Origin: Candidatus Altarchaeum sp.
GTDB taxonomy: Archaea; Altiarchaeota; Altiarchaeia; Altiarchaeales; Altiarchaeaceae
Assembly: GCA_018260615.1 (NCBI GenBank)
Contig: JAGWDQ010000080.1
Span: 1-47,336 of the forward strand
Length of the DNA stretch: 47,336 nucleotides
Direction: 5' to 3'
Shown: piece after piece, positions 6,453-23,126 of the stretch
Position numbering within the stretch: the stretch's first letter is position 1
Layout: each line of letters starts with the position of its first letter
Made by a program: the position numbers and the translations under genes
Notes under the pieces: model-generated
Databases searched by the model: none
What the model was told of the DNA's origin: nothing
The model's input: only the letters and a program-made list of their open reading frames with translations

Positions 6453-6537
6453 AATTGTTAACATATTAATTTTTGTTATTAAATTGAAGTGGTTGTTATG
6501 AGAACTAAAAATATAAAATCTGTCTACTGTTCGCAAA

Positions 6538-7851
6538 ATGAAATATGAAAAATACGAAATTAGGGATTCCGTTTGGGGTTATATATCATTTAATGACATG
6601 GAAAAAGCCATAATAGACAGTCCGATACTTCAACGACTTAGGCGAATAAAACAGCTCGCACTCACTGAGATGGTATATCCCGGAGCGACTAATACACGAT
6701 TTGAACATTCGCTTGGGGTGATGCATCTTGCATCCAGGATGTATGATAACATAGTCAAGAAAGATAAAGATATTCATATTCTTAAAAAAGCAGGGTATCT
6801 TGAGGAAGGCGATCGTACTAGACAACTTATCAGATTGGCAGCTTTACTTCATGATATAGGACATGCTCCATTCTCACATTCATCAGAAAGTTTAATGCCT
6901 ACAGATAGTAAAACGGGTGAAGAATACTCTCATGAAGATTATACGGAGGCCATAATTATAGGTCTTTTAAGGAAAACCATAGAAGAGAACGATCTTAACA
7001 ACAGGAAGTATAACATAACTGCCGATGAGATTGCTGGCTTAATTACAGGAAATAAAAAATTATTGAAAGATAAAATTATATGGAAAAAATTGCTTTCCGG
7101 ACAGCTTGATGCGGATAGAGGTGATTATTTGCTTCGGGATTCTTATTATACGGGTGTTAAATACGGGGTCTATGATGCGGAAAGATTAATAGTGAGTTCT
7201 GTATTGGGGATAAATCCGGAAGCAAAGGGAAATGATGATTATAACTCATTAGCTGTGGGTGTTGAAAAAGGCGGATGGCATGTTGCAGAATCCCTTATTA
7301 TAGCAAGATATATGGCGTTTTCGCAGATTGTCTTTCATAAAACCAGAGTTGCTTATGATTATCATCTTGAGGAAGTAATGCGTTCATTTTTAAAAGAAAA
7401 ATTTGGAAAAATTACATTTCCCTTGCCAACAGAAAAAGGTATAGAAGAGTTTTTATCATTAAATGATAGCACTATATGGAATTATATAAATGAAAACAGG
7501 AAAAAAGATGAAAATTGTCGCGCTATTATTGAACGAGATCACATAAGAAGCATAGATGAAACACCGGAAAACCCATCAGACGAGGATATAGATAAAATTA
7601 TGGGAAAAACAGAGATTCTAAAGAGTGCCGGATTATTCTGCCATATAGCAAAATCATATAAACTATGGTACGAATTCGGAAAAAGCGACTCTACTGAGAT
7701 AATAGTATTTGAAAACTATAACAATAGTAAGATTCTTTCAAAATACTCAAAAATAGTTGAATCACTAAAGGACGGTACACATCAACTAAGGATTTATGTT
7801 AAACAAAAAGATCGGGAAAAAGCCATCAAAAAGACATACAATAAAAAATAG
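6538..7851 (+). CDS. HD-domain phosphohydrolase (SAMHD1/dNTPase-like, YwfO/COG1078-like)
   Basis: QRLRRIKQL, YPGATNTRFEHSLGV, AALLHDIGHAPFSH, LDADRGDYLLRDS motifs. Confidence 0.92.
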   Translation: MKYEKYEIRDSVWGYISFNDMEKAIIDSPILQRLRRIKQLALTEMVYPGATNTRFEHSLGVMHLASRMYDNIVKKDKDIHILKKAGYLEEGDRTRQLIRLAALLHDIGHAPFSHSSESLMPTDSKTGEEYSHEDYTEAIIIGLLRKTIEENDLNNRKYNITADEIAGLITGNKKLLKDKIIWKKLLSGQLDADRGDYLLRDSYYTGVKYGVYDAERLIVSSVLGINPEAKGNDDYNSLAVGVEKGGWHVAESLIIARYMAFSQIVFHKTRVAYDYHLEEVMRSFLKEKFGKITFPLPTEKGIEEFLSLNDSTIWNYINENRKKDENCRAIIERDHIRSIDETPENPSDEDIDKIMGKTEILKSAGLFCHIAKSYKLWYEFGKSDSTEIIVFENYNNSKILSKYSKIVESLKDGTHQLRIYVKQKDREKAIKKTYNKK

Positions 7852-7921
7852 TAAGATGACAATTTAAATTTATAATTAAATTATTTTCATTATAATAAAC
7901 TAAAAATAAACAAAAACCAAA

Positions 7922-8413
7922 ATGACTTTATCAAATAAATCAGGAAATCAAAAAGAAAATTTTTTCGGAACAAGAAATGAACCTATAAGGAAAAGTATTT
8001 ATAAAACGGCCGGGATAATTGGATTTTTAGTAAAAGTACTACGAACAAAATATCCCGAAAAAAGAATAAGTCCTGCATATATTCAGAGAATTGGATATTT
8101 TTTAAAAAGAGAAAATGTAATAGATTTCAAGTATAGTATGTATCCTGATGGGCCTGGCTCCAATGCAATTTCAGTCGAACTTTCTGTTGCAACACATAAA
8201 AATATAGTAGAGATAAACTATTTGGAAGACAAAAAAGGATATTTTGTTGAACCCGGAGAAAACTTAAACAAAATGATTGACTTATTGACGAACGAAGAAA
8301 AGAATAAAATCAATAAAGTTGCAGATGAATTTGGACAATATGACTTAAGAGAACTTTCTGAAAAAGCAACAGATGTGTTTATCTTGAATCGCCCTACATT
8401 AAAATTTTCCTGA
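7922..8413 (+). CDS. YwgA/Panacea(DUF4065)-like winged-helix protein, partner of the HD gene
   Basis: IQRIGYFL...FKYSMYPDGPGS resembles the family pattern QKxxY...Y.YGP.S. Lies 70 bp downstream of the HD gene on the same strand. Confidence 0.55.
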   Translation: MTLSNKSGNQKENFFGTRNEPIRKSIYKTAGIIGFLVKVLRTKYPEKRISPAYIQRIGYFLKRENVIDFKYSMYPDGPGSNAISVELSVATHKNIVEINYLEDKKGYFVEPGENLNKMIDLLTNEEKNKINKVADEFGQYDLRELSEKATDVFILNRPTLKFS

Positions 8414-8563
8414 TAATCATGCTATTTTTATCACATATCTTAACCTTTCAAAAAAACAATCAATTATATCCGGGATCTCTTGGTTAAGGTGTTTTTTCTT
8501 TATTTTTTCATATTAAAATTTATCTGAGCACCAAAATAAACATAAAATAGAATAAAATTTGGA

Positions 8564-9106
8564 ATGATGAATAATAACAGTATATTAAATTTTTTTAAGT
8601 GGAAGGATGTATTTTCGCTGCTTTGTGCGGTCTTTGGATTTTTTGCTATAACTGAGGTATTTGCAGGAAATTTTTTGCCTGCTGCCTTGTTCCTCGTAAT
8701 TGCGGGAATATCTGACTACATGGACGGATTTATGGCAAGGAAATTTTCCTTTCCGACCGAGTATGGGGCAAATATTGATACGGTTGCGGATGCGGTTGCG
8801 TTTGGGGTTGCTCCTGCTGTTTTCATATACTTTTATGGGGGCAATTATCTTTATTTGTTAATTTCAATAATTGTTATGTGTGCCGGACTTATGCGGCTGG
8901 CGAGATATTTATGTCTGGCAAAAGAAAGCGAAAAAGAAAACACGGACAAAAACACAAAGGTTTATGTTGGGCTGCCCATAACATTTAATGCAATTATAAT
9001 TCCGCTGCTTTATTTGTTGTCGGTGTATTTAAATTTTAATTTGTTTTTTTTGACTTTGATTTCTGCTTATCTGATGATTTCAACGATAAATTTTAAGAAA
9101 ATTTAA
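8564..9106 (+). CDS. pssA: CDP-alcohol phosphatidyltransferase, likely archaetidylserine synthase
   Basis: DYMDGFMAR...G...DTVADAVAFGVAP signature, RLARY, YVGLPI, several TM segments. Confidence 0.88.
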   Translation: MMNNNSILNFFKWKDVFSLLCAVFGFFAITEVFAGNFLPAALFLVIAGISDYMDGFMARKFSFPTEYGANIDTVADAVAFGVAPAVFIYFYGGNYLYLLISIIVMCAGLMRLARYLCLAKESEKENTDKNTKVYVGLPITFNAIIIPLLYLLSVYLNFNLFFLTLISAYLMISTINFKKI

Positions 9107-12147: not shown

Positions 12148-15114
12148 TTACATGTAATCTGCATTAGTTCCGCTTCCGCCTGATTCTGTACTTTGTGATT
12201 GTGACTGGTAACTGCCTTTTCTTTCCGTAATCTGTCCTTTTGATGCTTCCTCTACAACACCCTTTATTTCTTCTATCCTTCCTTCCATATCACTAATGTG
12301 AAGTCGCAACTGGTCAATTCCATCTTTTAATTTATCGTATGAATTATTAATTTCCTCAATACATCTTTGTGCTTCATCTTTTTTCCTTATAACAAGCGAA
12401 TCCTTTTCTTCTACGGAGTCAATAGAATTTTTCATATCGTTTATTGCAAGTGACAACGCCTTTGAATTAAGCGTCTCGTATATCTTATTGGACATCTCTT
12501 TTACATCATCTATCCTTGATTCTCTTGCCATCTTTCGCATATTTTCAAATGTTCCCGGATCAAGTGAAGGTATTCGTGACGCTTCTAATTGAGATGATAG
12601 TGTTTTTATCATTTCTACGCTCTTTAAGAAATCATCACCTGTTTTGTTGACCTTCTTTGATGTCTCATCAAGCATCTTTTGTATCCGTTCAAGTTTTATC
12701 ACAACTTCCGGAAGTTTTTCTTTTTCTATTTTTGTTCCTTCGGTTAATTGTTTAAAGTCATTTGTCTTTATCTCCAAATCACTTAAAGTTGTAGTTATAT
12801 TCTTAATCAGAACTCTAACCATCGCCAGAGTTGGCGGAAGCTGGTACCATTTTTCTTCGGGACCCAGCATCTGATAATTTTGCCAAAACTTCAGTATCTC
12901 CTGATTCGTTCCTCTTAGGTCCGTTGAATCAACCATTTTTCCGGTCAACCTTTCATAATCCTGATAAGTTATAAAAAACAGCGAATGATGCTGAATTCTT
13001 GAATTTATATGAGTTCTATAATACATGTTTTCATAATTGTTCATAGTTCGTAATCTGGACGGCTTTCCGGGGGCAATAGGTGCAAACGAAATTCCAAATA
13101 ACAATCCGTAAATTATAAATTCGTAAGGGCTTGGCGCTGTAAGAAGTTTAACCTCTGCTTTAGAAGCAACATACTCCATCGCCTTTCCTTTTAGATCTTC
13201 TATTTGTAATTTTTCACTTGTTATGTTTCGCGGGTCGCTTGAAACGAGTGCAAGGTAAAAATTACATTTTGCGGTTTCAACTATCGGATGTTTATTTTTA
13301 TCTTCGGATAGTAAACCATAGTTTTTGATTTCTTTAAGTTCTTCATGACTTAAACCTGCTCCGGATGCTGCCGTATTTGAATGCACATAGTCTAGTAACG
13401 GATTAAATAAAGCATTTGCATTTGATATTGGTTTATGCGTAAGGTCAAGATATTCATTTTCTCTGCCAAGTTTTCTCATAATGTCTATGAAGCAGCTATT
13501 TTCAATATATCCTTTTAACTTATCAATATCACTATTGTTCAGTTCAATTGTTCTGCTTCTCAGAGTTCTAAAACCAGTATTTAGCTCATGCAATGTTTTT
13601 TCTTTTTCTATTTCTGTTTTTTCAACTTCTTTTTGTAATTCGTCTAATTTTTGCTTACAATCAGGAATCTTTCTTGTTTCTAATGTATAAATTGTTTCTT
13701 CTATTCTCTTTTTACTACTTCTTTCACTTTCTACATTATCTTTTATTGTCTTTATCTTTGATGAATGCAGTTTGGAAAAGATATCTTTTTCTGTTTGCCT
13801 TAATTTTTCGCCGAGATCATTTATCAGAGCTTCCTTTTTTTCAATATTCTCTTTCAAATTTTTTAAGTCGTAACTTGCTTTTTCGTATTCATCCAATGCC
13901 GTATCGTATTTTTTTTCTTTTTGTTCTTTCAACACATCTGACAGTGCGTAAAACCATTTAAGTTTTCTATACGGAAATATAACCCTGTAATATGAAAATG
14001 TTGAAAAATTGTGTACCCCCGTTGTGTAAGTAGCAAAATCAGCAATATCAAATGCACCTTTTTTCCCTGATGCCTTCACTGTTTCCTGTGGAACAAAACT
14101 CATATGCCTGATAAAATCAGCTACTGTAGGGGTAAATCTTTCCAGTGCTTCAGGACTATCACCTATTTCTTTTCTGTCTGCTATAAATAACGCATTAAAC
14201 ATAAGTTCATTGGAAGATAAAAGAAAATGCAATTCATTTAACAATCCATAAGCATTTGCCAGTTGAAGTGCTTCGTGAGGAAGCGGCAGGGTAACAATCC
14301 CCGTCATCATTAAACTATCAGATTTAAACTGTTCAGGAAAGTCATTTCTTATCATCATTGCAAGATCTGGAAACATTCCTGATCCGGTTCCTCCACCTGC
14401 GGCGGTTACTATAGTAATAAAAAAATTTCTTCTTCCTGTTTCTTCAACAAGCTGTGTTGCCCTTTTTCTTATTGATTCCAATATAAGTCCCTTATTAACA
14501 ACAAAATATTCTTTTCCGGCAATTCTCCGCATTCCTGCTCCACTCTCACTTGGCCAATATTCATTATCTAAGCACGCTCCAAACGCCTGCTGACATATTG
14601 CTCTGGCCGGAGGCGTAAGTTCTATGTGGAATATGCTCGGATTTATACTTGATGGCGGGGGGTTTGTATCCACAGCAATGATACTTACTCCTTTTTTTAA
14701 CAATCCTCTTTCTTCCTCTTTGATATCTGTTTTTGAAGAACATCCTTCTGTCACTCTTTGCTTTGGTTTTATTCCCAAATCACTTAGTTCTGTTATTTGT
14801 TTATCAATCTCATCTTTTACATCAAAATAATCAACATCCGGCATTTTAAATTTTTCTATGCTCTTTAGTAAAGCATCTGTTTTTTCTTCTATTCTCTTTC
14901 TTCTTTCGTCATATTTCTCTACATTCTTTATCTCGTCATTTGCAGAAATTATCCATCTTTCTATTGATTCAATAATGTCTTTCTTTTCTTTTTTAATTTC
15001 ACCTTCTTTTTGCATTAAGTTAACTATCTCATCCCCTATTTCTGTTGCAGCGCCGCCCAAACAGATAACTATTTTATTAGTATCAACAGATATTGTTTTA
15101 GTTGTTGAATCCAT
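12148..15114 (-). CDS. Tubulin/FtsZ-superfamily GTPase, FtsZl1/Tubulin_2-like, with three predicted coiled-coil segments (988 aa)
   Basis: T1-like ICLGGAATEIG, T2 AVDTN, T3 GAGMRRIAG, signature AGGGTGSG (14377-14397), ANAYGLLNEL, T7-like FDIADF (14038-14049). Long charged helical stretches lie after H1, in the centre and at the C-terminus. Confidence 0.85.
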   Translation of the reverse strand: MDSTTKTISVDTNKIVICLGGAATEIGDEIVNLMQKEGEIKKEKKDIIESIERWIISANDEIKNVEKYDERRKRIEEKTDALLKSIEKFKMPDVDYFDVKDEIDKQITELSDLGIKPKQRVTEGCSSKTDIKEEERGLLKKGVSIIAVDTNPPPSSINPSIFHIELTPPARAICQQAFGACLDNEYWPSESGAGMRRIAGKEYFVVNKGLILESIRKRATQLVEETGRRNFFITIVTAAGGGTGSGMFPDLAMMIRNDFPEQFKSDSLMMTGIVTLPLPHEALQLANAYGLLNELHFLLSSNELMFNALFIADRKEIGDSPEALERFTPTVADFIRHMSFVPQETVKASGKKGAFDIADFATYTTGVHNFSTFSYYRVIFPYRKLKWFYALSDVLKEQKEKKYDTALDEYEKASYDLKNLKENIEKKEALINDLGEKLRQTEKDIFSKLHSSKIKTIKDNVESERSSKKRIEETIYTLETRKIPDCKQKLDELQKEVEKTEIEKEKTLHELNTGFRTLRSRTIELNNSDIDKLKGYIENSCFIDIMRKLGRENEYLDLTHKPISNANALFNPLLDYVHSNTAASGAGLSHEELKEIKNYGLLSEDKNKHPIVETAKCNFYLALVSSDPRNITSEKLQIEDLKGKAMEYVASKAEVKLLTAPSPYEFIIYGLLFGISFAPIAPGKPSRLRTMNNYENMYYRTHINSRIQHHSLFFITYQDYERLTGKMVDSTDLRGTNQEILKFWQNYQMLGPEEKWYQLPPTLAMVRVLIKNITTTLSDLEIKTNDFKQLTEGTKIEKEKLPEVVIKLERIQKMLDETSKKVNKTGDDFLKSVEMIKTLSSQLEASRIPSLDPGTFENMRKMARESRIDDVKEMSNKIYETLNSKALSLAINDMKNSIDSVEEKDSLVIRKKDEAQRCIEEINNSYDKLKDGIDQLRLHISDMEGRIEEIKGVVEEASKGQITERKGSYQSQSQSTESGGSGTNADYM

Positions 15115-15147
15115 TTTTAAATTGTAGGTTTAGGATATTTATAAATT

Positions 15148-15729
15148 TTAACGATTCTCATCAAGAGGTTTTTCATTTCTTATTCCTCCAAGTTTCTCGC
15201 TACCGCGCGAAGCTGTTTCACTACCCCTTTTTACTTTATCACTAATTTCTTTTGCATCTTTTTCTTTTTCCTTTATTCCTATATTTTTATCAAGACCTTC
15301 TATCTTTTTATTATTTGCAAAAAATGCTATCATGCCACCAACTCCAATAAACACCAGTCCAATTATGGCCCCTGCATTTAACAACTTCATCTGTGATGCT
15401 CCGCCTTCTATAACCTGTGTAAAGACCAGTAAATACAATATAAGCCCTATTCCAAGCAAAATACCTCCAATTAGAATTAATGAGAACCCCATTTTATATA
15501 CGCCATTCCAAAATTCAGTAGGGATTTCTTCTTTCCCCCAGCTTTTTAATGCCCGATATGCCATTATCATTCCAGCAATAATAAGAATAACTGATATTAT
15601 ACCCCAAAGAATATCATATATTAAATATTCTTTCTTGTCTAAAAAACCAGTAAGTTTTGCAATTAACCACACACCTGCGGCTAAAAATCCAAACCCGAGT
15701 ATTGCTACTCCTACATTACTTTTCCCCAT
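15148..15729 (-). CDS. Four-TM membrane protein with charged C-terminal tail
   Basis: Four hydrophobic segments and a Lys/Glu-rich tail. First gene of the minus arm, 33 bp upstream of the 988-aa gene. Confidence 0.8.
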   Translation of the reverse strand: MGKSNVGVAILGFGFLAAGVWLIAKLTGFLDKKEYLIYDILWGIISVILIIAGMIMAYRALKSWGKEEIPTEFWNGVYKMGFSLILIGGILLGIGLILYLLVFTQVIEGGASQMKLLNAGAIIGLVFIGVGGMIAFFANNKKIEGLDKNIGIKEKEKDAKEISDKVKRGSETASRGSEKLGGIRNEKPLDENR

Positions 15730-15810
15730 TTTTATTGTATAAAAATTTTATTTGATTAATAATTTAACTTTTAAAAATAAATTCAATAATATTTTTTATT
15801 ATAAATTAGA
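15730..15810. promoter_or_regulatory. Divergent promoter region of the tubulin-like locus
   Basis: 81-bp almost pure A/T gap between head-to-head starts 15729(-) and 15811(+). Individual TATA/BRE boxes cannot be assigned reliably. Confidence 0.5.
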
Positions 15811-17589
15811 ATGGATATTAAATTTAAATTTATTTTTGGATTGTTTTTGATTTTTGTATTGTGCAGTTATTCATACTCACAGGAAAATTATTTATCTGAA
15901 AGTGCAGAACCATTGTGGAGTTTTAAAGACATATCAAATATCGCGTGGGCTGTTGGAATGGATGAAGATGCCCAAAACATAATTGCTACTTCTTCAGATG
16001 GAAATATTTATCTGACAGATATAAATGGTAATCTAAAGAAATCATATAAATTTTCACTTGAAGAGTCCGGTAAGATTCTTGATTCAGGCGCTGGAAATAA
16101 AGACAACAAAATTTCTACAATTGTTGCTGCCGGAACAAAGGTGTGCCTGATAAATATGGTCGATAAAAAAGAGGAATGGTGTAAGTCCGTTTCTAAAAAT
16201 GAGTCATTCTGGGCCGTCTCAATGTCTAAAAACGGAAAATTTTATGTGACAGGAACATCCAGCGGAAATGTTGAACTTTATGATGAAAAAGGTAATAAAA
16301 AGTGGGAATATAAAATTCCTGTGAGTGCAAAAAAAATTGTCTGGAAGGGTGTCTCTGTTTCAAATGACGGAGAAGTAGCAGTAACTTCTTATGAAAATAT
16401 TTTTGTGCTGAAGGATGGAAACACCTTATGGAATAAATCTTTGTCAGAAAATATTGAAACAGTAAAAATTACACAAAACGGAAAATATGTTGCTTGCGGA
16501 TGCAGAGATGGAAGGATTCATATTTTTGATAATGGGGCCGAAAAAGGAAAGGAAATAAAGGTTTTGGAGAGTGGAGGAGGGTCAATAAAAGATATTTCCC
16601 TAAATGAAGACGGATTTGGAAGTATATGCGAGGCACAAACATTTCACTACATTTATATTTTCAGCGAAGGAACTACTGTAAAAGATGTTGAAATTTATTA
16701 TAAGCAATTCGGTGTTGAATTGACATCAACGGAAATTTCAAAAAACGGAAGATATGTTATTGTATCTCCGGCAACAGAAGGCAGCAAAGGAATTTACTTT
16801 TTTGATTCGCATGAATATATAAAAAACTATATGGGAAGGGTGAAACAAAAAATAAATGGTTGTGTTGAAACAGCGAAAAAAATTGGAATGAATGTAAGCG
16901 ATGTTGAAGAAAATGTTAAAAAAATTGATATCTGTATAGAGGACGAGAATTATAAACTTGCAATTGAAGAAGGTAAAAATACAAACAGAATGTGCGAAGA
17001 TAAAATATCAGGTTTGAGAAAAGAAGCTGAAAACAGAATTTCTGAAGTTGATAATGAAATAGAACAAAAAAGAAAAGAAGGGCATGATGTAGAAGATGCA
17101 GAAAAATGTATTAATGAATCAAGGGAATTATTTAGTTATTCACAATACAAAAAAGCAAAAGATAAGGCGGATGAATGTCATAAAATAATTAATCCTCCGC
17201 CATTTCCTGTATTTTTAGTTATCCTCCTCGCCGTAGTTATTATTGCAGTTATTCTCTGGTTCCATAGTAAAAAGAACCCCGATCCTGTTGAAGAAGAAAT
17301 GAAGGAATGGGAAAATAAGGGCTTTGATGTTCCTTTTGAATTAAAAAAAGAAATAGAAAAACAAAAAGATAAAATTTACACATACAGAGAGAGAATAGAA
17401 AGTGCCTCACTGTTAATCAGAGATGTCAATGAATTACTGAAAAATGCAACATCAAAGGAAAGAGATGAAATAGAAGAATTTAAGGAAAAAATTTATAATG
17501 ACTGGTATAAAAAAGATGAAAAAACAAATGTCTGGAGAATTGAACAATTAAAGGATGAATTTTTCAAAATAAAAAGAAACATAAGGTGA
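15811..17589 (+). CDS. Single-pass membrane protein: signal peptide, WD40/PQQ-like beta-propeller, helical stalk, TM, ~105-aa cytoplasmic helical domain
   Basis: Repeats such as WAVSMSKNGKFYVTGTSSGNVELYD and VKITQNGKYVACGCRDGRIHIFD. TM segment PPPFPVFLVILLAVVIIAVILWF. Confidence 0.8.
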   Translation: MDIKFKFIFGLFLIFVLCSYSYSQENYLSESAEPLWSFKDISNIAWAVGMDEDAQNIIATSSDGNIYLTDINGNLKKSYKFSLEESGKILDSGAGNKDNKISTIVAAGTKVCLINMVDKKEEWCKSVSKNESFWAVSMSKNGKFYVTGTSSGNVELYDEKGNKKWEYKIPVSAKKIVWKGVSVSNDGEVAVTSYENIFVLKDGNTLWNKSLSENIETVKITQNGKYVACGCRDGRIHIFDNGAEKGKEIKVLESGGGSIKDISLNEDGFGSICEAQTFHYIYIFSEGTTVKDVEIYYKQFGVELTSTEISKNGRYVIVSPATEGSKGIYFFDSHEYIKNYMGRVKQKINGCVETAKKIGMNVSDVEENVKKIDICIEDENYKLAIEEGKNTNRMCEDKISGLRKEAENRISEVDNEIEQKRKEGHDVEDAEKCINESRELFSYSQYKKAKDKADECHKIINPPPFPVFLVILLAVVIIAVILWFHSKKNPDPVEEEMKEWENKGFDVPFELKKEIEKQKDKIYTYRERIESASLLIRDVNELLKNATSKERDEIEEFKEKIYNDWYKKDEKTNVWRIEQLKDEFFKIKRNIR

Positions 17590-17600
17590 AATAAATTTTA

Positions 17601-18323
17601 ATGATGAACTTCACAAATTTTTTTACCAAAAAGAAGGATGAAAATAATGAAAATATAAGAAAAGAAAAGATTGATGAGTTACGGAATCTTGAAATAAGGT
17701 TGTATGGAGAGTCCATAAAGAGTGAGGAGTTCAAATTAAGGTCTGAAATTCCTGCTGATGAAATTGAAAAAGCGACTGAAAATATGAAGCAATTATTGAA
17801 TATCCGGGATGAAACGTTGAGGATGATAGAACAATATGAAAAGACACATAAACATATAAGCAAAGAAGATTTTTACAAAATATTTGAAAATAAACAGGAT
17901 GCGGATATATTCTGGATTGTTTATAATAAAAATAAAAGGGCTGACAGGAGTGATAATGAGGAAGAGAAAAGAAGGATAAGACAATTAAAAAACGAATGTA
18001 TTGAAATTGTTCCCGGCGAAAATGAGTTTATTGATTTACGGCTCAAATGGAAAAATTTTGTTGAAAATGTGAGTGATGAACATTATCTGGCTGACCTTAA
18101 GATATATGCGGAAAAATTTTTATCAAAAAACAAAATAGAAAAAATAATAGAACCCTTGTTTGAAAGACACTCAAAAAATATAACCAATGTTTATGATGTT
18201 TATAACAGATTAAGCAACAGTTTTGAAAATGCAGATGAATTAAGAGGAAACAATATCGGAAAAGAAATGAAAAAAGAGATTGCAAACATAATATATAACA
18301 GATTAACCTTAAAGAAATTTTAA
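17601..18323 (+). CDS. Soluble charged alpha-helical hypothetical protein
   Basis: 240 aa, no TM. Its stop codon directly abuts the next ATG (TAAATG). Confidence 0.75.
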   Translation: MMNFTNFFTKKKDENNENIRKEKIDELRNLEIRLYGESIKSEEFKLRSEIPADEIEKATENMKQLLNIRDETLRMIEQYEKTHKHISKEDFYKIFENKQDADIFWIVYNKNKRADRSDNEEEKRRIRQLKNECIEIVPGENEFIDLRLKWKNFVENVSDEHYLADLKIYAEKFLSKNKIEKIIEPLFERHSKNITNVYDVYNRLSNSFENADELRGNNIGKEMKKEIANIIYNRLTLKKF

Positions 18324-19565
18324 ATGTCAAAAATTTTGAACTTTGGACTGGGACAGGCGGGAATAAATTTGGCACTGAATATTTACAAAGAAGCGGGAAG
18401 GCCGGAAACAAGTTCCCTGGAAAATATTGGTTTTTTTATCGGAGACATTCAGCCAATAGAAACATCACAGGAAACACATAAAGAAGCAAAACGACTGGGT
18501 TTAGATTTAGAAAGATTATTCGGACATAAAAAAAGCATCCTGTTTCCTACGGCAGCATGCCTAAACCAGATACAGATAACAAGCGAGAATTATGAATATG
18601 TGAGAAGGTCGTGGCTTATATCCGGAAAGATTGCCGAAGATTTTTTGAACGGAGAGAAATCAAAAGAAGATAACAAATTTTATGGGAAGGATGGAATCAT
18701 AAACAGGATTAAAACAATAAATACAGATGATTTGTGGATAAACATAGTGAATGCCGGGGGCGGTGGAACCGGAGTTGGCTGCGGACACCTTTTTGGTGAA
18801 AAAATCAGGAAAGATATGAACAAAAAACCGGGGTCAATTTTAACGACAACAATTGTTCTGCCTTATAAAAACGAGGAACATTCCATAATGTCCGAAGTAA
18901 ATGCAATATGCAACATAGGGCTATGTCATAAGACATCAGATGCTATAATAATTGCTGATAATGAATATATGGAAAAAAGAGAGAAGGTCAATGAAATGTA
19001 TGGAAAATGGACCGCAAATTTAACAGAATGTAACATACCTAATCTTCATGAATTTTTTAAAAGGACAGGAAACAACAAAAAACCGCCGGTAATTGTTCCC
19101 TCTTTTGTTGAAAAGGATAAGGACTTTTGGGATACTCTCAAGCTGGAATTTTTAATAGAGGATGCATTGTATGAAGGAAAAATGGCTGATTGCGATTTAG
19201 AAAAATCAATGGAAATTTACATTGATGTTACTTTGCCAAATAACTATAAAGAAAAGATTACGGGCAGAGAATTAGAACAAAAAATAGAAGAAGATATGAA
19301 AAAAAACGGTAAAAATATTAAAGTAACAATAGATATTAAAAAACCAAGATCAAACAAACTTAAAATATGTTCATTTATTGCATTATCAAATACTCCCCGC
19401 CTTAATGAATTAAATGAAATTTTCGGAGAGTTCATTGCTAATGAAGAAAAAATGAATGAAATTTTAAACAAGTGTAATTCTTCAAACATTACGATTTCAT
19501 TAGAAGAATTAGAAAAGATATATAAAAATTTAAAAGACGATATAGATGAATTTTTAAAAGAATAG
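18324..19565 (+). CDS. Divergent tubulin/FtsZ-superfamily protein with degenerate T3/T7 loops (413 aa)
   Basis: T1 FGLGQAGINL, variant signature NAGGGGTGVG (18756-18779), IVLPYKNE, DAIIIADNE. The expected T7 DxxD position reads NIPNL (19032-19046) by my alignment. Confidence 0.85.
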   Translation: MSKILNFGLGQAGINLALNIYKEAGRPETSSLENIGFFIGDIQPIETSQETHKEAKRLGLDLERLFGHKKSILFPTAACLNQIQITSENYEYVRRSWLISGKIAEDFLNGEKSKEDNKFYGKDGIINRIKTINTDDLWINIVNAGGGGTGVGCGHLFGEKIRKDMNKKPGSILTTTIVLPYKNEEHSIMSEVNAICNIGLCHKTSDAIIIADNEYMEKREKVNEMYGKWTANLTECNIPNLHEFFKRTGNNKKPPVIVPSFVEKDKDFWDTLKLEFLIEDALYEGKMADCDLEKSMEIYIDVTLPNNYKEKITGRELEQKIEEDMKKNGKNIKVTIDIKKPRSNKLKICSFIALSNTPRLNELNEIFGEFIANEEKMNEILNKCNSSNITISLEELEKIYKNLKDDIDEFLKE

Positions 19566-19585: not shown

Positions 19586-19628
19586 TATTTAATTATTTTA
19601 AAAATGTATTTAATTATTTTAAAAAATG
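19586..19628. repeat. 21-bp tandem duplication spanning the start codon of the 284-aa gene
   Basis: TATTTAATTATTTTAAAAATG at 19586-19606, repeated at 19607-19628 with one extra A, which puts the second ATG out of frame. Confidence 0.7.
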
Positions 19629-20458
19629 AGCAACTTAAGTTTTTGATGGCTGCATTTATATTGTTTGTCTTTGCTTTTGCAGGAAATGCCCATGCAACAA
19701 ACGGACCTGACGGGAGCAATTCTACAGATAACTATACGGGCAACAATAATACAACACAGGCAAATGAATCAAACGAATTACAAAACATTTCTGATGAGCA
19801 ATCCCAATTATCAACTGTGGATTTCTATTGTGATATGGATGGGGACGGATTTACTGGCGAAGAATCTTCCATATCTTGTCCTTCGGATGTCAGTTCTATG
19901 AACTGTAATCTAACCAAAATTTCTAATTGTGATGTAATTGACAGGCAGAATGAGAGCATTATCCTTTTATATGAAAATACCAGAATAAACTGTTCTGTTA
20001 AAAGAGGTGTTGACTGTAATGACCATAGTCCTTCAATAAACCCGAATGCCGCTGAAATATGTAATGGGATTGATGATAATTGTAACAACAAGACCGACAA
20101 CGACGAAAAAGAAGACATTTGTCCTCTTCTTTTATACTACTGTGACAGAGATGGAGACGGCTTTATAAGTATATTGCCATCCGGAAATTGTTCAACATTT
20201 AATTGTATTCCGTCAAAATGTCAAAATGAAAGCAGAGATGACTGCGATGATAACGATGCTGCAATAAATACAACCGCAAATATGAAAGAAGTGATATTGA
20301 AGCATAATAAGACCAGAGAAATAAATTTAACAGCAACAAAAATGGAAAATTCAAAAATTTTAATAAATGTCGTTTCGCTGTTGTTTTATCTTTTTGTGGC
20401 ATTTGCCGTCGTTGTTGTTTTATCATGGATCGTTTTCAGGGAAAAATTTCATCACTAA
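19604..20458 (+). CDS. Exported Cys/Asp-rich protein with putative metal-binding (MopE-related, PF11617-like) and DxDxDG motifs and a C-terminal TM
   Basis: DCNDHSPSINPNAAEICNGIDDNCNNKTD matches the recalled DC.D....I.P.A.EIC.GID.NC consensus. Also CDMDGDGF, CDRDGDGF, DCDDNDAAIN, signal peptide AFAGNAHA and a TM near the C-terminus. Confidence 0.82.
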   Translation: MYLIILKNEQLKFLMAAFILFVFAFAGNAHATNGPDGSNSTDNYTGNNNTTQANESNELQNISDEQSQLSTVDFYCDMDGDGFTGEESSISCPSDVSSMNCNLTKISNCDVIDRQNESIILLYENTRINCSVKRGVDCNDHSPSINPNAAEICNGIDDNCNNKTDNDEKEDICPLLLYYCDRDGDGFISILPSGNCSTFNCIPSKCQNESRDDCDDNDAAINTTANMKEVILKHNKTREINLTATKMENSKILINVVSLLFYLFVAFAVVVVLSWIVFREKFHH

Positions 20459-20488
20459 AATACAGGTGGAAAAATAAAAATTACAAAA

Positions 20489-20932
20489 ATGGAAAATTTT
20501 AATAAATTTAAAGGGGCTATGGGATGTATCTTAATAGCATTATTTTTTGTTTTACTTTTAGCCGGAAATACATCTGCCGAAAATAAAACAACCGAATGTG
20601 ACAAAACAATTAGCGGGTTTTTACAAATAGAAAATCTCACTGCTGTTGATGAAAATTATAAAAAAGCAGAACAATCATTAGAAAACACAACTAATGAGTG
20701 TAAAAATGATTCGCTTTTATTCAAAATATTAGGTGTGATTATTGGAATTGCTCTCGGACTGGTTTTAACAAAGAAATGGATTGACAGAATGAAATACGAA
20801 CATATCTATAAAGTTCCTGACTTTATATGGATATTAAAAACCGGAGGAATGATAACTGTGGCAGGAATAATTTTAATTATTATAATAGGACTAATCATCG
20901 GAATTGATACTCTTACAAACATTTTATTTTAA
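20489..20932 (+). CDS. Small membrane protein (signal/anchor plus two TM)
   Basis: Three hydrophobic segments. Stop is 1 bp before the next probable ATG (20934). Confidence 0.7.
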   Translation: MENFNKFKGAMGCILIALFFVLLLAGNTSAENKTTECDKTISGFLQIENLTAVDENYKKAEQSLENTTNECKNDSLLFKILGVIIGIALGLVLTKKWIDRMKYEHIYKVPDFIWILKTGGMITVAGIILIIIIGLIIGIDTLTNILF

Positions 20933-20933
20933 G

Positions 20934-21920
20934 ATGAATATAAAAAACATATTTTTCATGTGCCTGATTCTATTCATATTTCTATTTATGGGAAATGTGT
21001 ATGGGGACAAAACGGTTGAGGAGCTGCGCAAAGACATTTCAAATATTAATACTGACTCGTCATATTCCGAGCCGGGACAGATACAAAGAACATGTCTGTC
21101 CTGGTTGTATGGAAAAGATACATACAGCAGCAACCCGAATGTGAATAAATTTACTTATGAAGTTAAATCGTTTCTTGAAAATTTTATGAGTTTGGACAAA
21201 AAGAGAATCAATGATGTAAATTCAAGAGAAGAAATGTTGAAAAATGCACCTGATTTAAAGAGTATAATTTCTCAAATGGAGGAAACATACAATTACAATT
21301 TACGCTCGGATGAAGGCAAACAGGATATAAGTGAAATAATCAAACTTTCAAAAAGCGGCTTAACAAACATGCTGGAAGATACCGGGAGTTTTTTTGAAGA
21401 AAAAGGAAATAATGAAAAAATAACAATAAAGAAAATAGAACTTCTTGAAAACGCATTGAAATGTTATAACACAACGACATCAATTGGAGGAAATATCCCC
21501 GAAGAGTTAAACAAAAAGGTCTCTGAAACAAAAATGTCTTTTTATGAAGACATAGAAAAAGCGGGAAATTCTGTCAGTGAAGGAGAAAGATATTACAACG
21601 AAACATTAAATAACAGGCAAATGACAACCATAAAAAAGGCAACTGAAAATTACAATATCGCAATTTCAATCTATGAAAAGCATAACATCCCGATGTTATC
21701 CGGTTCCGAAAAATATAAAAGTTATTACGATGCGTATAAAGATGCGACTTATAAGATGGATGAAGCAAATAAATTAGAAAATGAATTACAGACATCATTT
21801 TATATGTTTGTTGGAATAGGTGCTATAATTTTAATCATAATATTTTCTACAATATTCAGAGGACTCTCATCTTATAAAAGAGATGAAGAAAGGATGAAAA
21901 TAACAAAAATTTTCAGATAA
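20934..21920 (+). CDS. Exported helical protein with C-terminal TM and short tail
   Basis: Probable start MNIKNIFFMCLILFIFLFMGNVYG (ORF track start 20904). TM FYMFVGIGAIILIIIFSTIF, tail SYKRDEERMKITKIFR. Confidence 0.75.
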   Translation: MNIKNIFFMCLILFIFLFMGNVYGDKTVEELRKDISNINTDSSYSEPGQIQRTCLSWLYGKDTYSSNPNVNKFTYEVKSFLENFMSLDKKRINDVNSREEMLKNAPDLKSIISQMEETYNYNLRSDEGKQDISEIIKLSKSGLTNMLEDTGSFFEEKGNNEKITIKKIELLENALKCYNTTTSIGGNIPEELNKKVSETKMSFYEDIEKAGNSVSEGERYYNETLNNRQMTTIKKATENYNIAISIYEKHNIPMLSGSEKYKSYYDAYKDATYKMDEANKLENELQTSFYMFVGIGAIILIIIFSTIFRGLSSYKRDEERMKITKIFR

Positions 21921-21944: not shown

Positions 21945-23126
21945 ATGGTCCAGGTTGTCGTTGGTGTTGGTCATTGCGGAACAAAGATAGTTGATGAGAT
22001 ATATGAAAATAAGGAAATGTTTGAATTGACATATCCCATAGCATTAAATAGCGAAGCACAGGAATTAATGCAGCTTCACAATTTAAAGGAGGATAAATGG
22101 GTAGGGATAACCGGAAACGGAGAATTAGTATCTACTAAGGGTTCTATATTCGGAAAAACATTTGGGAAAAAAGAAAATTTTATTTTTAGAAATGAAGTAC
22201 GGGGTGGATTTGGAAATGACCCCGAAAGAGCCGAAGAAGTAATAAATAAGAATAAGGACTATTTCAAAAATTGTTTAGATGCAATATTTCCGGGAGATAA
22301 AATAAATTATGCGTACATTTTTCTCGGACTTGGAAGCGGAACCGGAGCGGGTGTTTCTCCTGAGATAGCAAAATATTTAAAAAACAGATATCCAACTACA
22401 AAGGTCATTGCCGTAGGAGTCATGCCAGGTAAAAGTGAGGGAGGACGCCGGGCTTATGCTGCAAGGTATGGCATGGAACAAATAGCAGAATTTGCAGATA
22501 GCTTTATATTGGTTGATAATGAAAGAATATTCAAAGAAAAAAATATAGAATTGGCTTATACAAAATATAATAAATTTGTTGCAAATTTCTTCTATCACCA
22601 AATTGGGGGAATATTCAAACATAAAATAGACCCGAGCAAATATTCTGCATGGTCGGGAAAGGTTGTCGATAATGCGGACTTACTAACAGCAACAATGTTT
22701 AAAACAGGAAATAAACGATATGTTTCTGCAATATCCTCGGAACCTATAATAGTAGCGCCTAAATTAAGATATATTTTAGACAAATTAAAATTGGGCGGTC
22801 TTGCAGGAGCAAATATCCCTACATCAGACGGGATGAAAAAATATTTTGAAGACGCTGTCTCTCATTTAACAGTAACTGTTGAGGATTTAAAAAATGTTGA
22901 AAAGGGCTTTTGTAATCTTGTGATTCCGGACAAACTTGCAAATAAAGAAATTCAGGATAAAGTAATAAGAGATAAACTGGCAGAAATATGTAAAACAGAG
23001 TATCATTTTGGTGCATCATTAACAAAGGGCTATGTGATGTATTTAAATTTATGCCTGACAATGAATGTTGAAAATGTCGGACGGCTACATGAAATATATG
23101 AAATGGCAGATAAATTTAAGCCATGA
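21945..23126 (+). CDS. CetZ/FtsZ-like tubulin-superfamily GTPase with intact T7 loop (393 aa)
   Basis: T1 VGVGHCGTKIVD, ALNS, T3 GGFGNDPE, variant signature GLGSGTGAG (22326-22352), VMPGKSEG, FILVDNE, T7 VVDNAD (22662-22679). Confidence 0.9.
   Translation: MVQVVVGVGHCGTKIVDEIYENKEMFELTYPIALNSEAQELMQLHNLKEDKWVGITGNGELVSTKGSIFGKTFGKKENFIFRNEVRGGFGNDPERAEEVINKNKDYFKNCLDAIFPGDKINYAYIFLGLGSGTGAGVSPEIAKYLKNRYPTTKVIAVGVMPGKSEGGRRAYAARYGMEQIAEFADSFILVDNERIFKEKNIELAYTKYNKFVANFFYHQIGGIFKHKIDPSKYSAWSGKVVDNADLLTATMFKTGNKRYVSAISSEPIIVAPKLRYILDKLKLGGLAGANIPTSDGMKKYFEDAVSHLTVTVEDLKNVEKGFCNLVIPDKLANKEIQDKVIRDKLAEICKTEYHFGASLTKGYVMYLNLCLTMNVENVGRLHEIYEMADKFKP

Follow-up and report, generated by a model that had tools for sequence, protein, structure and literature searches.

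Here, we report that a 47,336-nucleotide stretch of DNA from Candidatus Altarchaeum sp. (assembly GCA_018260615.1, contig JAGWDQ010000080.1; ~32% GC; referred to below, at its full length, as the window) encodes a divergent CetZ/tubulin-like protein in which the T7 loop is truncated and has lost its acidic residues. The gene for this 413-residue protein (P0001; 18324..19565, plus strand; hereafter X) shares a locus with the genes for two further tubulin-superfamily proteins, the 393-residue CetZ-like protein Y (P0002) and the 988-residue protein Z, and directly follows the gene for a helical protein, W (P0004). It is established that FtsZ, CetZ and tubulin subunits complete the GTPase site of an adjoining subunit with their own T7 loop. 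In our judgement, the chances are even that X is a non-catalytic subunit of a tubulin module, most likely a cap or nucleator at the filament end and less likely the beta-like half of an X-Y heterodimer.

Both its fold and its profile match place X in the tubulin/FtsZ superfamily. Specifically, it matches PF00091 (Tubulin/FtsZ) in Pfam at E = 2.4e-9 with 38.2 bits, above the cut-off of 33, and its AlphaFold2 (AF2) model, which was built on an 11-sequence family alignment, has the two-domain FtsZ/tubulin fold with the core helix H7 (predicted local distance difference test score (pLDDT) 85, predicted template modeling score (pTM) 0.88). The model matched more than 500 tubulin-family chains in Foldseek, and in VIA-align it reached tied Z scores of 30–31 to OdinTubulin, beta-tubulin and CetZ with 308–359 residues aligned; the alignments to tubulin cover the whole model (1–413 to 1–431). 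Although X has no match to the tubulin C-terminal domain PF03953 in Pfam at E ≤ 1, its model aligns to tubulin through H11–H12. Among the sequences in the PDB, the X family profile ranked CetZ 3zid first (2.5e-15), followed by gamma-tubulins (~4e-12). At E ≤ 1, X has no match to any NCBIfam model and thus none to the FtsZ equivalog TIGR00065, and it is only ~15% identical to the FtsZ of its own genome. As for the CetZ clade, the closest match by profile among PDB sequences is CetZ 3zid, and in our tree, which held no reference CetZ sequences, X lies apart from the CetZ-like Y family. We conclude that X is no FtsZ and that it does not count as a demonstrated CetZ either, and its T3 and T7 segments, described below, are not those of an active polymerizing GTPase.

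The residual T7 and the beginning of helix H8 in X read C236-N237-I-P-N240-L-H-E243 (19029..19052, plus strand). A sequence-only reading made before our analysis had described X as a tubulin-superfamily paralog without T7 acids, with NIPNL in place of DxxD; its superfamily assignment holds by the profile and fold evidence above, and the T7 assignment by the following comparisons. In a MAFFT L-INS-i alignment of FtsZ, Y-family and X-family sequences, N237 and N240 are placed under both Asp residues of the FtsZ DFAD motif and of DIPD in the relative P0014. When the clade of P0001 was aligned with its relatives using hhalign, N240 was opposite their invariant Asp, a result that concerns N240 only. 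In the AF2 model of X, H7 comprises residues 219–235, the loop residues 236–237, and H8 residues 238–248, so that N237 immediately precedes H8 and N240 is the third residue of the helix; in the AF2 model of the relative P0018, H8 comprises residues 259–266, D258 immediately precedes it and D261 is third, i.e. the same register as in X. The structural register refers to helix boundaries assigned by DSSP in these two models. Because L-INS-i, hhalign and the H8 starts in the AF2 models all support the NIPN register, we conclude that both T7 acids of X are Asn, with N237 and N240 replacing [E/D]xxD and N240 at the position of the acidic catalytic residue (DxxD/E; E218 of CetZ1). Each of the two Asn codons is a single G-to-A transition away from an Asp codon.

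The loss exceeds what had been claimed from the letters, in that the loop itself is reduced to two residues (C236-N237) in the AF2 model of X compared to 15 in that of P0018. Counted in the L-INS-i alignment, 14 residues separate the conserved Asn of H7 from the first T7 position in X, compared to 23 in the FtsZ of this genome, 27 in P0018 and 33 in Y. We conclude that the loop that inserts into the nucleotide pocket of the neighboring subunit is essentially deleted in X, with ~13 residues gone. The two paralogs in the locus keep DxAD, in agreement with the sequence-only reading: Y has VD242NAD245, of which D242 and D245 are invariant across the Y family, and Z has FDIADF.

Turning to the nucleotide pocket, the sequence-only reading had listed GLGQAG and GGGGTGVG as retained, and both are present. 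The T1 loop, G8-LGQAG13 by direct reading (18345..18362, plus strand), corresponds in the alignment to GxGxCG of the relatives and to T1 of FtsZ; the T4 tubulin signature, G145-GGGTGVG152 by direct reading and in the family alignment (18756..18779, plus strand), includes G146, G147 and G150, which are invariant in the X-family alignment A1. N193, the DNE motif and N223 are retained as well. Judged from T1, T4, N193, DNE and N223, it is plausible that X binds GTP. The T3 segment, Y92-VRRSWLISG101 (18597..18626, plus strand), is also where it had been read; here, both default MAFFT and L-INS-i set YVRRSW under GVGGxW of the relatives, and both glycines of that motif are Arg in X. The corresponding sequence is YVRGSW in P0009, GVDKTW in P0014 and P0018, GVGGxW in most relatives and GAGG in FtsZ; X thus has no glycine-rich T3, the sensor of the gamma-phosphate.

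The X family is tiny, unannotated and centered on Altiarchaeales. Of 1.84 billion cluster representatives scanned exhaustively with HMMER, eight proteins matched the X family at E ≤ 0.001, word-indexed protein searches returned very few relatives, and a search of genome contigs found no related locus when started from the single X protein and one when started from a three-sequence alignment. All members that bear source names are called 'hypothetical protein' and come from Altiarchaeales bins (A3, WOR_SM1_79) or from loosely binned DPANN/archaeal metagenome-assembled genomes. The full-length relatives P0011–P0015 and P0018 are 22–28% identical to X; in them, [E/D]-x-x-D and the F-K/R-R after it are retained, as are a T3 containing a tubulin-like Trp and the DNE motif. 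The two Asn residues at T7 are found only in P0001, P0009/P0029 (both NISN) and P0010 (NIHN), which are 74–79% identical to one another; conservation of this state in orthologs, which had been named as a check, thus extends to the known full-length orthologs, while the more distant relatives have [E/D]xxD. In a maximum-likelihood tree, the X family forms a monophyletic group (98/99), inside which the P0001 clade is nested on a long stem of 1.25. Because the full-length relatives keep [E/D]xxD and the Asn residues occur only in the nested P0001 clade, the T7 loss in X is derived.

Separately, we note that both X (1.25) and Y (1.31 changes per site) have long stems in the lineage of genomes G000 and G003, which, judged from this one lineage, is compatible with a joint acceleration. 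An X-family member from an unrelated metagenome, P0050 (L040:85-1281), has a deleted T3 segment, GGCTGG at T4 and G..G at T7. We conclude that P0050 lost its GTPase features independently and that such loss recurs in the X family. Its contig is 4.6 kb long, and the genes that follow encode proteins of 333 and 681 residues for which no Pfam match is on record.

X is under purifying selection and is not a pseudogene. When the genes were compared with their orthologs in L009, the ratio of nonsynonymous to synonymous substitution rates (dN/dS) was 0.167 for X (at dS 0.68), 0.119 for Y and 0.179 for Z. The codon for N237 is AAC in the window and AAT in L009, a synonymous change, and the reading frame of X is intact in G000, G003, L009, L010, L011 and L012. 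In one NCBI assembly (24.8-kb contig), the X ortholog is called in two pieces, P0031 (215 residues) and P0030 (189 residues), with the break just after DNEYIEK, as would arise from a frameshift, a stop or an assembly error.

The arrangement of genes around X is also conserved. Two Altiarchaeum assemblies (L009/L010) carry the complete locus at ~80% identity, and X and Y are co-located in L009/L010, L026, L028, L036 and L041, i.e. on every contig of the relatives that is long enough to show it. Z lies beside X in L009, L036 and L041, and a Z fragment accompanies X in L038. The core of the locus is found even around very distant X relatives. In WOR_SM1_79 (L036), the order is Z, a 213-residue protein, W, X, three further genes and Y, while in L041 it is Z, a 220-residue protein, W, X and Y with no gene between X and Y. 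A W-like helical gene adjoins X in five lineages (the window, L026, L036, L039 and L041), divergently on the opposite strand in L039 and otherwise directly upstream; the W proteins of the five lineages share the C-terminal motif KKxhAxhIY[D/E/N]R, and the W-X junction overlaps in L041. Based on these sequences, W is a candidate direct partner of X. By BLASTP, the membrane proteins encoded upstream and downstream in the P0018 locus had no significant similarity to those of the window, and W alone was weakly similar. We conclude that Z, a hydrophobic protein of ~200 residues, the helical W, X and the canonical CetZ-like Y form a conserved multi-tubulin module in Altiarchaeales-type archaea, to which the Altiarchaeum version adds several exported or membrane proteins. 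Within the phylum, 61 species genomes were covered; of these, only G000, G002 and G003 have full-length X matches, and only G000 and G003 have an X of the P0001 type together with a Y of the P0002 type and Z.

Two observations on related contigs are added here. In a genome from another family of the phylum (G005, contig C184; L017), one short contig carries a weak X-profile match (43 bits, 444-residue frame) and a Y-profile match (125 bits), which may be a further X-Y pair. In L041, a compact version of the locus, two reverse transcriptase genes of the group II intron type (RVT_1 with GIIM) lie ~5 kb downstream of X-Y (14463-17693).

X was next compared with systems of known function. It resembles CetZ (3zid, 4b46, 4b45) in that this is its best profile match among solved structures, with Z scores of 30–31 at 2.5–3.1 Å; however, X lacks the T7 loop and the catalytic acid that CetZ has there (E218 in CetZ1), and it also has a non-glycine T3, extra C-terminal helices beyond the CetZ-aligned range (1–375), and a clade of its own apart from the CetZ-like Y. 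Like beta-tubulin and the Asgard protein AtubA, X has a T7 without catalytic acid and lies next to a paralog with an intact T7; in those proteins, the acid is replaced by Lys (K254 in beta-tubulin versus E254 in alpha-tubulin; K248 in AtubA), leaving one interface inactive (PMC13394414). Yet, beta-tubulin and AtubA retain a full-length T7 loop in which the acid alone is replaced, while X has Asn in place of both acids and a deleted loop; moreover, identity to X is 13–16%, a heterodimer is weakly predicted for X, and X relatives with an intact T7 also lie beside Y. Gamma-tubulin, the second-best family by profile (4e-12), resembles X in the proposed role, i.e. a nucleotide face offered to the T7 face of a paralog at a filament end; but partners of the ring complex are not present, the likeness is one of family-level profile score and not of orthology, and the cap role of X is one that we infer. 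Finally, X has the superfamily fold and the T1 and T4 motifs in common with FtsZ but, unlike FtsZ, has no TIGR00065 match and no NxDxxD and instead carries tubulin-type motifs (GQxG, W after T3, DNE).

These comparisons suggest how X may work. Because T7 acids complete the GTPase site of the neighboring subunit and X has lost them, the bottom (T7) face of X would be unable to activate GTP hydrolysis in a bound subunit; with the loop deleted, this face may form no normal longitudinal contact at all. Its nucleotide face (T1, T4, N193, DNE, N223), on the other hand, could accept the intact T7 of Y or Z, most likely that of Y. X would then act as a non-catalytic terminal cap or nucleator for Y filaments, following a logic like that of gamma-tubulin, and might be tied to proteins of the envelope or membrane through W.

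The sequence-only reading had suggested a cap, a nucleator or an alternating subunit, and an alpha/beta-like heteropolymer with the 393-residue protein Y. With its T7 loop lost, X suits the role of a terminal cap or nucleator, and that of an alternating subunit no better. In favor of a pairing with Y, the two proteins are encoded together and show the T7 asymmetry of an alpha/beta-type pair, with N..N in X and D242/D245 intact in Y. The modeling of a heterodimer that had been proposed was carried out as a complex prediction of X and Y with two GTP; it gave 'weak support' (score 0.35 versus 0.00 for the best control; no interface given), with runs agreeing in at least 20% of contacts and a partner pLDDT of at least 80. 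In the calibration of this score, that mark was reached by 58 out of 80 solved complexes and by 2 out of 110 mismatched pairs, and at 0.60 or below by only seven of those 80 solved complexes together with both mismatches.

Several observations weigh against the interpretation of X as a non-catalytic partner of Y. A score in the range of 0.35 is wrong more often than right unless the pairing is already likely, and the pass may reflect a memory of solved tubulin dimers. On contigs long enough to tell, X relatives with [E/D]xxD also adjoin a Y gene, so that both partners have a canonical T7; therefore, X and Y were paired before the asymmetry arose, the pairing is independent of the T7 loss, and co-location carries no specific information on an asymmetric heterodimer. 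All four genomes of the genus, among them G001, which has no X, contain a stand-alone Y paralog, Y2 (contig C53). The N..N state is based on three closely related sequences of ~78% identity, and the Arg-Arg T3 leaves the nucleotide chemistry of X itself uncertain. The register is also not unanimous: the default MAFFT alignment shifts the gap and sets F244 under the catalytic Asp, a register that we rejected given that L-INS-i, hhalign and two AF2 models agree on N240. Moreover, E243, which is invariant in P0001, P0009 and P0010 and follows N240 by one turn on the same face of H8, could in principle compensate for the lost acids or reach the interface. Because the loop is gone and not merely neutralized, and because relatives with a canonical T7 also lie beside Y, an alternating X-Y heteropolymer is possible but less favored than a cap or nucleator.

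Of the other explanations that we considered, the one that fares best is that X forms homopolymers that cannot hydrolyze GTP, i.e. static, hyperstable filaments that serve as a permanent scaffold, and is not a partner of Y. The CetZ1 T7 mutant E218A still polymerizes and forms hyperstable polymers (bioRxiv 10.1101/2024.04.08.588506), and X keeps T1, T4 and the overall fold; nevertheless, X lacks the entire T7 loop, which is a major element of the longitudinal interface, and has an altered T3, and we consider this scenario unlikely. Somewhat less likely still is that X has given up polymerization with tubulin-family subunits and is an adaptor, nucleotide-binding or nucleotide-free, on W or on the tails of membrane proteins. 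The abutting W and X genes, the W-like gene with its shared C-terminal motif next to X in five lineages, and P0050, whose independent loss of T3, T4 integrity and T7 implies that the family tolerates a complete loss of GTPase features, all speak for an adaptor; against it, T1, T4, N193 and DNE of X are intact under purifying selection, and the X-Y complex prediction is weak but not zero.

It is also conceivable, if improbable, that X is still a competent GTPase activator in which E243 or a residue of a partner replaces the lost Asp, leaving no functional asymmetry. This possibility draws on the invariance and position of E243 and on the default MAFFT alignment, which puts the catalytic position next to it. 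However, the catalytic position is occupied by N240 according to two alignment methods and two structure models, X no longer has the loop that brings the acids into the pocket of the neighbor, and the residue three positions after the catalytic Asp is not acidic elsewhere in the L-INS-i alignment (R/G in X relatives; A/T/I in Y and in the FtsZs of this genome). That X is a decaying gene under relaxed selection or an incipient pseudogene, as the split ortholog P0031/P0030 and the long stem of the P0001 clade might suggest, is highly improbable given a dN/dS similar to that of its neighbors, frames that are intact in six genomes or contigs, and a confidently predicted fold.

T7 asymmetry between subunits underlies the alpha/beta-tubulin heterodimer and, outside eukaryotes, is documented mainly for Asgard AtubAB. 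X, which is T7-dead and devoid of the T7 loop yet kept under purifying selection beside a catalytic paralog, represents an independent natural experiment and could show how non-catalytic subunits, caps and nucleators arise from GTPase polymers. The three-tubulin module with its helical and hydrophobic or exported proteins is uncharacterized and may point to a novel cytoskeletal system in Altiarchaeales. A more far-reaching scenario, which we regard as rather doubtful, is that Altiarchaeum independently evolved an alpha/beta-like pair, with X as the T7-dead beta-like or capping subunit and Y as the catalytic one, that together with the giant Tubulin_2 protein Z and membrane-spanning partners makes up a dedicated cytoskeletal apparatus. 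In the literature on Altiarchaeota with CetZ or tubulin, we found a general mention of CetZ-like proteins that have some tubulin-like N-terminal blocks (PMC9871819), and neither the T7-less clade of X nor the three-tubulin module was described there; the titles and abstracts found on T7 and pseudo-GTPases concern no T7-dead archaeal CetZ-like protein.

In the window, X is part of a divergent locus with two arms. The minus-strand arm comprises the gene for Z (12148..15114), a giant Tubulin_2 protein of the FtsZl1 type (PF13809, 53 bits; T7 FDIADF as above), and the gene for a 193-residue protein with hydrophobic N-terminal segments (15148..15729). A gene for a protein of 193–220 residues occupies the matching position in L009, L036 and L041, where it is equated by position alone. 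The plus-strand arm begins with the gene for a 592-residue exported beta-propeller protein with a C-terminal transmembrane (TM) segment and a coiled-coil tail (15811..17589), which has WD40/beta-propeller matches in Pfam and is conserved in L009. The gene for W (240 residues; 17601..18323) follows, and its TAA stop codon abuts the ATG of X (TAAATG). In L009/L010, an additional gene for an 859-residue FG-GAP/beta-propeller protein lies between the propeller gene and W (6525-9104); it is absent from the window.

Downstream of X on the plus strand are genes for three proteins with signal or TM segments according to their translations (19604..21920), namely a 284-residue MopE-like Cys/Asp-rich protein (PF11617 match), a 147-residue protein and a 338-residue protein; L009 and L036 have counterparts of these genes, and L041 has none. 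The arm continues with the gene for Y (21945..23126, plus strand), which matches PF00091 with 79.6 bits, has the canonical T7 D242-N-A-D245, and has CetZ1 4b46 and CetZ 3zid as its best solved relatives. The abstract by Makarova and Koonin (PMC2875224) names vWA, GTPase and OmpA proteins in the context of FtsZl1; none of these domains turned up among the window proteins that were scanned against Pfam.

Lastly, the genome G000 (2.2 Mb, 87% complete) has eight tubulin-superfamily matches: a fused FtsZ pair, one further FtsZ, X, Y, Z, Y2 and a divergent 443-residue protein on contig C114 (T7 VDVADY). The fused pair lies outside the window on contig C60 (L001:31-2529), where an open reading frame of 832 residues contains two complete tandem FtsZ domains, both with a DxAD T7, and thus resembles a covalent fusion of one FtsZ to another. 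Next on the same contig comes a third FtsZ, of 353 residues. G001–G003 likewise contain frames of 826–847 residues with two FtsZ matches.

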